Source of the DNA: a virus
Lineage: Duplodnaviria; Heunggongvirae; Uroviricota; Caudoviricetes
Virus record (IMG/VR): IMGVR_UViG_2531839006_000011
Location: 1 to 13,089 of that record
DNA length: 13,089 nt
Reading direction: 5' to 3' (one strand)
The notes beneath the pieces were generated by a model. The model saw only the letters and a program-made list of their open reading frames with translations, searched no databases and was not told the origin of the DNA. Numbering within the stretch: the first letter of the stretch is position 1; each line of letters opens with the position of its first letter. Of this stretch, positions 1 to 2,482 are shown one piece after another. Position numbers and translations under genes: made by a program.

Positions 1-1263
1 CTATTTTAATGGATTGTTAATCTTTGCATATTCAAACGGGCTGATACATTGTTCTCTGTTCGCATCCAGAAAATCTGCCCACCACTGTAGCATCAGTCGC
101 CGTTCTTCCAGATGTTCTGCTTTATGGATATACGCAGCACGTACACCATTACGCTCCTGATGGCTCATCTGACGTTCCACAGCATCGCGGGACCACAAAC
201 CTGATTCAATCAATGCACTGCACGCCATCGCCCGGAATCCATGGCCACAGACATCCTGGGTTGTGTCATACCCCATCACCCTCAGGGCTTTATTTACAGT
301 ATTTTCACTGATTGGTTTACGCGGGTCATGTGCTCCCGTAAAGATCAGACCATTTTCACCAGCCCATGTCTGTAGTTCTGTCAGTATGGCTACAGCCTGT
401 TTGCTGAGTGGCACAAGATGTGGTGTTCGCATCTTGGAGCCCCGGTGTGAGAATTTTACGCCTGGCAGAGGTTCGCGTTCGGCTGGAATAGTCCACATGG
501 AATTGTCAATATCAATTTCAGACCAGCGGGCATATCTGAGTTCACTGGAACGAATAAAAACCAGTAAATTCAGCATAACGGCAAGCCGGGTGACAGGCTG
601 GCCTTTATAACCGTCAATACGCGACAGAAGTTCAGGCAGGCGTGAAAGCTCCAGAGCAGGGCGATGCTGGCGTTTTACCGTGGTCAATGCACCAGCCATA
701 TCCAGAGCCGGGTTATATCTGATGATGCCAGACTGTACGGCGTAACGCATTACAGCAGATATTCTTTGCTGCAGACGACTGGCGATTTCATAAATTTGTT
801 TTGCTTCTGCAGCACGAACAGGGATAAGCAGGTCCGGGGTATTGAGTGTTGTGATATCCCGGTTGCCGATAAAGGGGAAAACGTGTGTCTCGAGGCTTTT
901 GAGTACTTTATCGCTGTGTGATTGTGCCCATTGTTTATTACTGGCATGCCAGCGTCGTGCAATATGTTCAAAAGAGAGCTGTAAATCAGGGACAACTTTT
1001 TTAACTCTTTTCTGTTCGCAAGGGTCAATCCCCTCTGAAATCAGTTTTCGGGCCTCATCCCGTTTTGTACGAGCTTCGGAGAGAGAAACTTCTGGATACA
1101 CACCAAGTGCCAGAGTCTTCTCCTTACCCAGAATACGATAACGGAGACGCCAGTAACGGGAACCATTAGGATGAACCAGCAGGAACATGCCGGCCCCGTC
1201 AGTGAGTTTATAAGCCTTGTCAGTGGGCTTTGCAGCCCGGATTTTTGCGTCAGTCAGTGCCAT
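1..1263 (-). CDS. int: Tyrosine site-specific integrase, P4-like (420 aa, complete)
   Basis: ATG is the reverse complement of 1261-1263 and TAG stop of 1-3. N-terminal MALTDAKIRAAKPTDKAYKLTDGAGMFLLVHPNGSRYWRLRYR is the typical P4-family arm-binding N-terminus; C-terminal catalytic region has HGFRAMA (His-x-x-Arg box) and VRAAYIH (Tyr nucleophile). Sits beside a tRNA-derived att core. Confidence 0.9.
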   Translation of the reverse strand: MALTDAKIRAAKPTDKAYKLTDGAGMFLLVHPNGSRYWRLRYRILGKEKTLALGVYPEVSLSEARTKRDEARKLISEGIDPCEQKRVKKVVPDLQLSFEHIARRWHASNKQWAQSHSDKVLKSLETHVFPFIGNRDITTLNTPDLLIPVRAAEAKQIYEIASRLQQRISAVMRYAVQSGIIRYNPALDMAGALTTVKRQHRPALELSRLPELLSRIDGYKGQPVTRLAVMLNLLVFIRSSELRYARWSEIDIDNSMWTIPAEREPLPGVKFSHRGSKMRTPHLVPLSKQAVAILTELQTWAGENGLIFTGAHDPRKPISENTVNKALRVMGYDTTQDVCGHGFRAMACSALIESGLWSRDAVERQMSHQERNGVRAAYIHKAEHLEERRLMLQWWADFLDANREQCISPFEYAKINNPLK

Positions 1264-1290
1264 AGTTCAGCCTTCTGAATGCGTTAAAGA

Positions 1291-1334
1291 GGGTACAAAT
1301 TCTGTCGAACTGGGGTATACCCGCAATTATACCC
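1291..1334. promoter_or_regulatory. Repeated GGGTA(C/T)A half-sites in the integrase upstream region, including palindrome GGGTATACCC (1313-1322); candidate Int arm-type or operator sites
   Basis: GGGTACA at 1291-1297, GGGTATACCC at 1313-1322 and TTATACCC at 1327-1334, all within about 70 bp upstream of the int start. Function is inferred only. Confidence 0.3.
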
Positions 1335-1418
1335 ACACAATGAGGTTGATGTGGGGAGAATTTGGTTGAGTTCGGTAGAATTGATTTGGAGGAAGAACAC
1401 TTAAATCATGGTGTTCTG

Positions 1419-1451
1419 AAACGAAAAACGGACCTCCGTGGAGGTCCGTTT
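1419..1451 (-). terminator. Rho-independent terminator-like hairpin immediately 3' of the tRNA-Phe fragment (minus-strand orientation)
   Basis: Perfect inverted repeat AAACGGACCTCC / GGAGGTCCGTTT (1426-1437 and 1440-1451); read on the minus strand the stem is followed by TTTTTCGTTTC. Confidence 0.55.
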
Positions 1452-1460
1452 ATATGAATT

Positions 1461-1510
1461 TGGTGCCCGGACTCGGAATCGAACCAAGGACACGGGGATT
1501 TTCAATCCCC
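1461..1510 (-). tRNA. 3'-terminal 50 nt of tRNA-Phe (partial copy; attachment-site core / direct repeat), not a complete tRNA gene
   Basis: Reverse complement of 1461-1510 is GGGGATTGAAAATCCCCGTGTCCTTGGTTCGATTCCGAGTCCGGGCACCA, which matches the anticodon loop (GAA) through the CCA end of enterobacterial tRNA-Phe as I recall it. The sequence where the 5' 26 nt would lie (1511-1536) does not match a tRNA. Confidence 0.85.
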
Positions 1511-1603
1511 ATGTCATAAAATTCAGATAGTTACGGGCATGTCAAGTTGTTGTCGAAGTCTTTCATGCGCATCCGATCACATAACTGTCGATAGGACGCA
1601 GAT

Positions 1604-2482
1604 ATGAAAATACTTCCCGTTGTCTCAACAAAAGGTGGCGAAGGTAAATCAACACAATCCGCTAACCTGGCTGGTTTTCTCGCCGATGCAGGTATCCGTA
1701 CCCTGCTGATTGACGGAGATCATGCTCAGCCCACGGCAAGCAACATCTTTCCGCTGACATATGAAGCGTCAGCCGGTCTTTTTGAGTTGCTGATGCGCAC
1801 GGCTGACCTCAGTTATCCCGATAACATCATTTCCCGCACAGCTATCGACGGACTCGATCTGATAGTCTCCAATGACCCTCATGAGCAGTTAAAAACTGCG
1901 ATGCTTCACGCCCCGGATGGTCGTCTGCGCCTCCGGAATGTCCTGCAGCATCCGCTTTTTCTGAACAACTACGATGTCATTATAGTTGATTCTCAGGGTG
2001 CGCGTTCTGTCATGCTCGAAATGATTGTGCTGTCGGCCACTGATTCGGTTGTCGGGATGGTCAATCCGGTACTCCCTGATGTGCGCGAGTTTATTCGCGG
2101 CACTGTCAACGTTATGGAGAACCTGCTGCCTTACCGGGAACTGGGGATACCCCTGCCGAAAGTACGCACGCTGGTTAACTGCATGGATTATACGGCACTG
2201 GCCAGGAAGACGCTGGATGAGCTGGCCGGAATTATTCAGACCGGTCGTTACAGCAGGCAGTTACCTGAAGGTGCGGTTTCCCTTCTTTCCACACAGATTT
2301 ACGACCTGAATATTTACAAGCAGGGGCATGCGGCTGGTCAACCCGTACATCGTCTCGAAAAAGAATCCACACGTCGCAGTGATTCCGCGCTTGTCACGAT
2401 GCACAGCCTGGCCTGTGAACTATTTCCTGAGTGGAAACAGGCGTTTGACGGGCTACTGGCTAACGGGGGAATACGTCAGTGA
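1604..2482 (+). CDS. parA: ParA/Soj-family partition ATPase (292 aa)
   Basis: Deviant Walker A KGGEGKST near the N-terminus (VSTKGGEGKSTQSANLA); ATG at 1604 and TGA at 2480-2482; first gene after the att core. Confidence 0.88.
   Translation: MKILPVVSTKGGEGKSTQSANLAGFLADAGIRTLLIDGDHAQPTASNIFPLTYEASAGLFELLMRTADLSYPDNIISRTAIDGLDLIVSNDPHEQLKTAMLHAPDGRLRLRNVLQHPLFLNNYDVIIVDSQGARSVMLEMIVLSATDSVVGMVNPVLPDVREFIRGTVNVMENLLPYRELGIPLPKVRTLVNCMDYTALARKTLDELAGIIQTGRYSRQLPEGAVSLLSTQIYDLNIYKQGHAAGQPVHRLEKESTRRSDSALVTMHSLACELFPEWKQAFDGLLANGGIRQ

Follow-up and report, generated by a model that had tools for sequence, protein, structure and literature searches.

A partial tRNA-Phe between a P4-type integrase and a parA module very probably marks the seam of two integrative elements stacked at one Escherichia coli tRNA gene

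The sequence under study (hereafter the window) is the whole stretch of 13,089 nucleotides that makes up positions 1 to 13,089 of the IMG/VR virus record IMGVR_UViG_2531839006_000011, assigned to the Caudoviricetes. Within its first 1610 nucleotides, a P4-type integrase gene and a parA-dnaB-parB module lie on opposite sides of a piece of a tRNA-Phe gene. A preliminary description, made from the sequence alone, had offered two explanations for this order: the attachment site (attP) of an excised circular or episomal element, or the joint between two islands inserted in tandem at the same tRNA. We compared the window with complete genomes of E. coli and with related loci, which are given L numbers where they need to be told apart. 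The features of the joint and of the genes beyond it, as assigned with the help of these comparisons, are listed below; ICE stands for integrative and conjugative element, GI for genomic island.

1..1263, minus strand: intact gene of a P4-type tyrosine integrase, intP4 (420 amino acids, aa), of the GI-pheV type of island (Pfam Arm-DNA-bind_3, Phage_int_M and Phage_integrase)
1264..1460, minus strand: integrase-side arm of the island (integrase leader) with the island terminator; identical in ICE-free strains
1426..1451, minus strand: terminator-like hairpin AAACGGACCTCCACGGAGGTCCGTTT followed by a T run (sequence fold)
1461..1510, minus strand: 50-nt copy of tRNA-Phe positions 27-76, with the native chromosomal T-stem (alignment with pheV)
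1461..1483, minus strand: last 23 nt of the tRNA (TTCGATTCCGAGTCCGGGCACCA), probable repeat of the P4-type island integrase (identity limit of locus L031; strain TUM9803)
1502..1509, minus strand: GGGATTGA, tRNA positions 28-35, the interval of ICE strand exchange (malS junctions)
1511..1603, plus strand: arm of the ICE on the parA side; 19 E. coli genomes that differ in their left neighbours have it at 100% identity; the 28 nt at 1511-1538 mimic a tRNA 5' half
1604..2482, plus strand: ParA/Soj-type ATPase, first gene of the ICE (Pfam AAA_31/CbiA; 'ParA family protein' in relatives; no NCBIfam cut-off passed)
3557..4945, plus strand: replicative helicase DnaB of the SPI-7 island type (NF040583, 684.7 bits, cut-off 655)
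4935..6584, plus strand: ICE ParB of the PFGI-1 type, ICE_PFGI_1_parB (TIGR03764, 379 bits, cut-off 143.75)
11824..13089, plus strand: island replication protein of the STY4528 family, ICE backbone (NF040582, 391.9 bits, cut-off 130)

The minus strand of 1461-1510 reads GGGGATTGAAAATCCCCGTGTCCTTGGTTCGATTCCGAGTCCGGGCACCA and agrees with positions 27-76 of tRNA-Phe at 50 of 50 nucleotides when aligned with the pheV genes of E. coli 20Ec-P-124 and K-12, and in the alignment with complete pheV genes the identity breaks off precisely at 1510/1511. ARAGORN predicted no tRNA anywhere in the window. The Rfam tRNA model RF00005 has a gathering score of 29 and reached 18.4 bits over 1464-1538, where next to nothing of a D arm is present; a search of 1200-1700 at E<=1 gave no match, and the tRNA model surfaced solely in a smaller search space, below threshold. 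The segment is thus a partial tRNA-Phe, as described earlier, and its 5' half was not mis-scored: the 28 nt in that position are ICE sequence and the D arm is missing. In the tRNA orientation the fragment is followed by the hairpin, which runs from 1451 to 1426 on the minus strand with 11 pairs and then a T run, and by the integrase with its P4-type Pfam domains, and on the other side stands the module of the ParA ATPase and the genes with profile matches to DnaB and ParB; here too the earlier anatomy was accurate. The native K-12 sequence 3' of pheV, CTAATTCTTAAGAACCCGCCCACAAGGCGGG, differs from the island arm of the window, and the hairpin at 1426-1451 is the island's own, standing in place of the native pheV terminator.

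The integrase side of the joint is found in the same form in strains that have no ICE. When window positions 1-2500 were compared by megablast with 5,426 complete E. coli genomes, the matches fell into two classes. In the first, positions 1-1510 are 100% identical in many E. coli chromosomes without the ICE, in which the same integrase follows a complete tRNA-Phe; strain 20Ec-P-124, for instance, carries it 3' of a complete pheV, beside yqgA and speC, with no ICE. In the second class, 31 genomes align straight across the joint. Past the fragment 1461-1510, in the tRNA orientation, the window continues with AATTCATATAAACGGACC..., as does the sequence 3' of the complete pheV in island-bearing, ICE-free strains, and 197 nt separate the 3' end of tRNA-Phe from the integrase start codon. 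The same integrase protein precedes the same island cargo in several genomes. These comparisons point to the P4-type integrase of the window being the head of a genomic island and not part of the ICE. To the left of the exact protein there is native pheV, native pheU or the distal end of another CP4-type island; a fourth kind of neighbour, the ICE, was met at L028 only. At L025 it lies at pheU, after the dsbD-cutA-yjdC side, and at L031 it comes straight after another island, at the distal end with ParDE/CbtA. It would therefore appear that the allele moves between both tRNA-Phe genes and forms island-island tandems.

The other side of the joint belongs to an element that has an integrase of its own. 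The best of the 31 genomes that match across the joint is that of the turkey strain 181.1. Its chromosome begins here with yqgA, a complete tRNA-Phe, a 329-aa tyrosine recombinase, TraI, a UvrD-type helicase and type IV pilus genes; these are followed by a full TIGR037xx ICE conjugation set, topoisomerase III, a STY4528-family protein, ParB, DnaB and ParA. After ParA come the 50-nt fragment, the P4-type integrase and a second island, whose genes include a sucrose operon and those for a phosphoethanolamine transferase and an H-NS-like protein. The annotation of 181.1 places conjugation genes across 78 kb that lie outside the window, namely the ICE type IV secretion system (T4SS), the TraD coupling protein, the TraI relaxase and the type IV pilus. 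The 329-aa recombinase has XerD/XerC/XerA-like matches and is without the P4-type arm-binding domain. Because of this gene order and the XerC/D-like recombinase, the cargo from 1604 onward belongs to an ICE with its own far-end integrase, and window positions 1511-13089 are the parA end of an ICE of the ICEEc2/SPI-7/PAPI-1 (pKLC102/PAGI-2) type, 67-95 kb long and ~78 kb in 181.1. The preliminary description had suggested comparing the integrase and the cargo with those of neighbouring islands, and had argued that in a tandem the integrase and the cargo that starts at 1604 would be parts of different elements. This expectation is borne out, with the integrase matching ICE-free islands and going with island cargo, and the cargo matching the ICE and going with the ICE's own integrase. 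The copy in 181.1 also carries iha; cargo varies among the ICE copies.

The ParA arm is present in 54 of the 5,426 E. coli genomes, in 56 places, all of them chromosomal. In 27 genomes whose ParA arm is 98.8-100% identical, the distance to the ICE integrase with its complete tRNA-Phe is 67-95 kb, and the orientation is unchanged. This complete tRNA-Phe at the other end of the ICE is the recombination partner of the 50-nt segment, the lack of which had been named as a refutation, as had a complete tRNA-Phe abutting the joint itself, where there is none. Two exceptions to the far-end tRNA-Phe were found: in strain 64.1 both ends of the ICE lie inside malS, and in TUM9803 what precedes the ICE integrase arm is another island's distal end with just 23 nt of the tRNA. 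The latter strain (L022, NZ_CP135671.1 975500-987500) holds a triple array at tRNA-Phe, in the order island, 23 nt, ICE, 50 nt and P4-type integrase; the distal end of its first island, of the CP4 type, encodes CbtA/CbeA, a DUF4942 protein and an EAL protein, and the record has two ParA-arm places.

To the left of the ParA arm, 31 of the 54 E. coli genomes have an integrase of this type. The neighbour is the native pheV terminator with an IS110 remnant and kps at L006 and L007, an integrase remnant with cadC at pheU at L008, and truncated malS at L005. Strain ECCNB12-2 has the ICE in an otherwise empty pheV beside kps, and there the 50-nt fragment is followed by exactly CTAATTCTTAAGAACCCGCCCACAAGGCGGG. 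At 11 loci from other Enterobacterales (Salmonella, Erwinia, Mixta, Trabulsiella, Scandinavium and others) a tRNA-Phe fragment of 49-50 nt always precedes parA. Next to this fragment stands a terminator of the native type, and an intact P4-type integrase is absent. A further locus, L009, comes from a record titled Vagococcus sp. WN89Y (Firmicutes); its ParA is 90% identical, its tRNA-Phe fragment has the enterobacterial sequence and its arms resemble those of the Salmonella locus L010, and this assembly is likely contaminated or mislabelled.

The core of the joint is recombinant. On the ICE-integrase side of 181.1 the complete tRNA has the T-stem GGTGG/CCGCC and then continues with CCTTACATCAAAGCC..., whereas the T-stem of native pheV is CTTGG/CCGAG, and the fragment in the window is of the native type. 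The variant tRNA and the ICE integrase are together 100% identical in 27 genomes and 99.9% identical in three more, and because they are conserved together we conclude that the ICE brings the T-stem variant with it. A cloverleaf fold is predicted for either version. In the exchange of CTTGG/CCGAG for GGTGG/CCGCC the two changed pairs stay complementary (L004 7580-7655 compared with L002 7461-7536 and L034 567-642). A true attP of this ICE would draw both arms and the whole core from one element, and would join the parA arm, the GGTGG/CCGCC T-stem and the ICE integrase arm CCTTACATC; in the window, only the parA-side arm is of the ICE. What the window joins to the parA arm is chromosomal or island sequence, which is the signature expected of an ICE attR. 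The 50-nt fragment is accordingly the attR of the ICE and, simultaneously, the attL core of the genomic island.

The two sides of the joint have evidently had separate histories. Over 13,090 aligned bases the window and 181.1 differ by 22 substitutions, all of them within positions 1-1204, in the integrase gene, while positions 1205-13089 hold no substitution and a single 1-nt indel. In other genomes that match across the joint the ParA arm is 99.9-100% identical and the overall identity of 1-2500 is as low as 97%. The 5.3-Mb contig of L028 (GCA_027275235.1) agrees with window positions 1-11262 with no substitution and one 1-nt indel, and behind the integrase it carries lactate-utilisation and type I restriction-modification cargo, as in ICE-free strains. 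L028 thus places the window's arrangement in a chromosome, with the integrase heading an island rather than the ICE.

The position of the crossover is narrowed by an insertion outside the tRNA genes. The secondary insertion of the ICE in malS of strain 64.1 (L005 ~4990-5000, L033 ~2680-2700) falls at GGGATTGA, within codons ..YGIDGF... In strain 64.1 the malS junction reads ...GACTAT GGGATTGA AAATCCCC... on the ICE-integrase side and ...GACATG GGGATTGA TGGTTTTCGG... on the parA side. Because the ICE and malS have only this octamer in common, the exchange took place inside it. Independent bounds come from the tRNA insertions: several relatives have A or T for G at attR position 27, so that position 27 is element-derived, and the attL T-stem is element-derived from position 49. 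Tyrosine recombinases act at inverted core binding sites that flank an overlap region. In most members of the family the arm lengthens the palindrome of the anticodon stem to ACAC-GGGGA / TCCCC-GTGT, and this extended palindrome may represent the expected pair of inverted core binding sites around the overlap. The island integrase appears to use another part of the gene. Compared with the island-island tandem at L031, the identity of the window stops at 1483; the ICE-integrase-side arm of TUM9803 retains just 23 nt of the tRNA; and the direct repeats of GI-pheV are 19 and 23 bp (PMC11537424). The ICE would thus use the anticodon arm and the P4-type island the last 23 nt, which are different sub-sites of one tRNA. 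A second copy of the 23-nt repeat was not found in the 20 kb left of the integrase in strain 181.1.

Taken together, we propose that window positions 1-1610 are very probably the seam of two independent integrative elements stacked at one E. coli tRNA-Phe gene, most probably pheV. An older island with its P4-type integrase would already have stood directly 3' of the tRNA when the ~78-kb ICE entered by conjugation. The XerC/D-like integrase of the ICE, encoded at its far end and outside the window, would then have recombined the ICE attP with the intact tRNA, the strands being exchanged inside GGGATTGA, that is, in the 5' strand of the anticodon stem and the first four bases of the loop. At the far end this would yield a complete hybrid tRNA-Phe, with a chromosomal 5' part and an ICE-borne 3' part containing GGTGG/CCGCC; at the parA end it would leave the original chromosomal 3' 50 nt, still joined to the island terminator and integrase. 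The native T-stem, the ICE-free strains, the separate substitution histories and the far-end ICE integrase all favour the tandem joint that the preliminary description had given as one of its options. The family to which the ICE belongs suggests that its XerC/D-like integrase made the joint. Both elements can probably still excise separately, the island if its far repeat persists, and excision of the ICE would restore the tRNA-integrase arrangement of the ICE-free strains.

Several points weigh against this proposal or limit it. The window ends at the integrase stop codon on one side and 11.6 kb into the ICE on the other, so that the complete tRNA-Phe, the ICE integrase and the far repeat of the island lie outside it and are seen in near-identical relatives. 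The window's own array could stand at pheU instead of pheV, because the integrase allele occurs at both. The assignment of the joint to one recombinase draws on knowledge of the family. Finally, the ICE copy in malS of strain 64.1 has a hybrid T-stem, CTTGG...CCGCC, which one crossover leaves unexplained because a single exchange in GGGATTGA cannot produce it; as a speculation, an earlier excision via homologous recombination, or migration of the junction into the T-loop, might account for it.

A related proposal concerns what the stacked elements do. The ICE and GI-pheV could act as one transferable unit, a case of cis-mobilisation by accretion, in which the ICE could carry the otherwise non-conjugative GI-pheV into new hosts by Hfr-like transfer or by excision via the outer sites. 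We regard this as rather unlikely, and such transfer is disfavoured as the usual route because one ICE adjoins several integrase alleles. Much less probable is a single composite element whose two sides travel together, the ICE either having the P4-type integrase as an additional working integrase or depending on it. ICEs with two integrases do exist, for example ICEKp2 (PMC6761156), and the P4-type integrase is directly beside the ParA arm in the 31 of 54 genomes counted above; such co-occurrence is, however, expected if most pathogenic E. coli already carry GI-pheV (PMC11537424). A travelling unit also fits poorly with the absence of substitutions in the ICE part as against 22 in the integrase, and with the several integrase alleles that one ICE adjoins. 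Moreover, the ICE has no such integrase beside it in other genera, in malS or at an empty pheV, and thousands of E. coli have the integrase but not the ICE.

The other option of the preliminary description is all but excluded. On that reading the P4-type integrase and parA would be the two ends of one element, an ICE in its excised circular or episomal form, and the joint would be its attP. The order of parA, tRNA 3' fragment and integrase formally resembles the attP known for ICEs of this family. Ahead of parA, the ICE arm showed no sigma-70-like promoter, which would fit control of the ICE and proves nothing. Against a circle stand the chromosomal T-stem of the fragment, which is not GGTGG/CCGCC, and the arm past the fragment, which is the island arm and is 100% identical to that of ICE-free strains, while the genuine integrase-side arm of the ICE (CCTTACATCAAAGCC...) differs. 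All close relatives have their own ICE integrase, ~78 kb off from the joint in 181.1; 56 of 56 places of the ParA arm in E. coli are chromosomal; and the chromosomal contig of L028 has island cargo behind the integrase. When window positions 1400-4000 were searched with megablast against 72,556 plasmid records, the tRNA piece alone matched and no ICE backbone was found. The true attP, reconstructed from the parA arm and the T-stem of the ICE type, had 0 exact matches in metagenome contigs, which is uninformative as circular intermediates are rare.

The joint has also been annotated as a gene. For half of the E. coli genomes that carry the ParA arm, 27 of 54, RefSeq (PGAP) lists a 78-nt 'tRNA-Ser' at the equivalent of 1461-1538 on the minus strand (L001 21461-21538; L007 4951-5028). 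This 'tRNA-Ser' is made up of 28 nt of ICE arm and 50 nt of tRNA-Phe and looks like a recurrent annotation artefact. That these 78 nt are a real tRNA gene, with the 5' half mis-scored in the preliminary description, is next to inconceivable: the PGAP calls, the end-to-end alignment of the tRNA model and the pairing of GCCCGTA in the ICE arm with the acceptor 3' strand (6 of 7) speak for it, but they are set against the sub-threshold Rfam score with essentially no D arm, negative ARAGORN results in the window and in 17 loci with this joint, a predicted minimum-free-energy fold that is a long hairpin and no cloverleaf, an anticodon arm that is that of tRNA-Phe (GAA), the Ser call probably stemming from a shifted reading, and an acceptor-like motif that more distant relatives of the ICE do not conserve. 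The likeness of GCCCGTA to an acceptor strand is probably due to chance. As a minor possibility, we considered it as the decayed 5' half of a tRNA-Phe that the ICE formerly carried whole; the GTCCGGA of a Salmonella relative does not align with it, and more distant relatives have no such motif. For the ACA[C/T] beside the anticodon stem, a better explanation is that the inverted repeat at the crossover site extends into it.

Further along the ICE part of the window, a run of G at 7674-7677 is one G short compared with 181.1 and L028 (CCCGGGGCGGGG becoming CCCGGGCGGGG). The missing G shifts the frame of a DUF2857 gene, which gives 157 aa compared with 192 aa and an open reading frame (ORF) that ends at 7778; it could be a true frameshift or a homopolymer sequencing error. 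Over 11.26 kb nothing else sets the window apart from L028, and a look-up of the 157-aa product found no record of it. An 82-aa ORF at 7879-8127, directly after the DUF2786/DUF2857 genes, corresponds to a gene that relatives list under Pfam ParE_like as 'ParE family toxin-like protein', with no antitoxin gene annotated next to it. A 145-nt segment is present twice, at 9837-9981 and 10668-10812, with 93% identity, as seen from cross-matches to L001 and L028. This repeat falls among small ORFs, including ead/Ea22-like genes, several of which are fragments or frameshifted in the annotation of 181.1.

The two elements resemble known systems. The ICE can be likened to ICEEc2 of E. coli BEN374, of the pKLC102/PAGI-2/PAPI-1/SPI-7 family, as the work of Roche et al. 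2010 is cited in PMC11537424 and PMC13127887. Members of the ICEEc2/SPI-7/PAPI-1 family have parA(soj)-dnaB-parB at one end and a XerC/D-like integrase beside the tRNA at the other, and the ICE of the window and its relatives shares with the ICEEc2 family the TIGR037xx-type T4SS, TraI relaxase and type IV pilus (in 181.1), the ~50-nt partial tRNA repeat at the parA end, and insertion at pheV/pheU with secondary insertion in malS. ICEEc2-type ICEs insert at pheV/pheU (PMC11537424). By description nothing essential differs, and the element would be ICEEc2 proper or a sibling. The related ICE of strain CH4804, whose ParA arm is 100% identical to that of the window, is conjugative, is reported to excise to a circle and also inserts in malS, and ICEs of this type can start Hfr-like chromosome transfer while integrated (PMC13127887). 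The island resembles GI-pheV with intP4 (PMC11537424) in the distance of 197 nt from the tRNA-Phe 3' end to the integrase, in the 23-nt repeat and, for the allele in relatives, in having the same cargo as ICE-free strains; unlike GI-pheV, the island of the window has apparently been pushed ~78 kb from the complete tRNA by the ICE and abuts the 50-nt fragment only. Tandem arrays have been described before, such as ICEPm3+ICEPm1 at pheU of Proteus mirabilis AR379 (PMC11278526) and, as cited in that paper, the arrays of SXT/R391 and the accretion of ICESt1-related elements. In such arrays, as in the window, successive site-specific insertions at one tRNA leave an internal partial repeat, bordered by one element's end and the following element's integrase. 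In the window, however, the two elements would use unrelated integrases and different sub-sites of the tRNA, and are not related ICEs at one site. The stacked arrangement itself is already documented, being present across the joint in 31 complete E. coli genomes and the L028 assembly.

Our results bear on how such regions are delimited. The P4-type integrase is not to be given to the ICE, nor the ICE cargo to GI-pheV, and the joint is not to be taken as evidence of an episome. The use of separate sub-sites of one tRNA by two unrelated integrases would explain the build-up of GI-ICE-GI arrays at pheV. The host has only two tRNA-Phe genes, pheV and pheU, and insertion of the ICE gives one of them a T-stem variant with compensatory changes.

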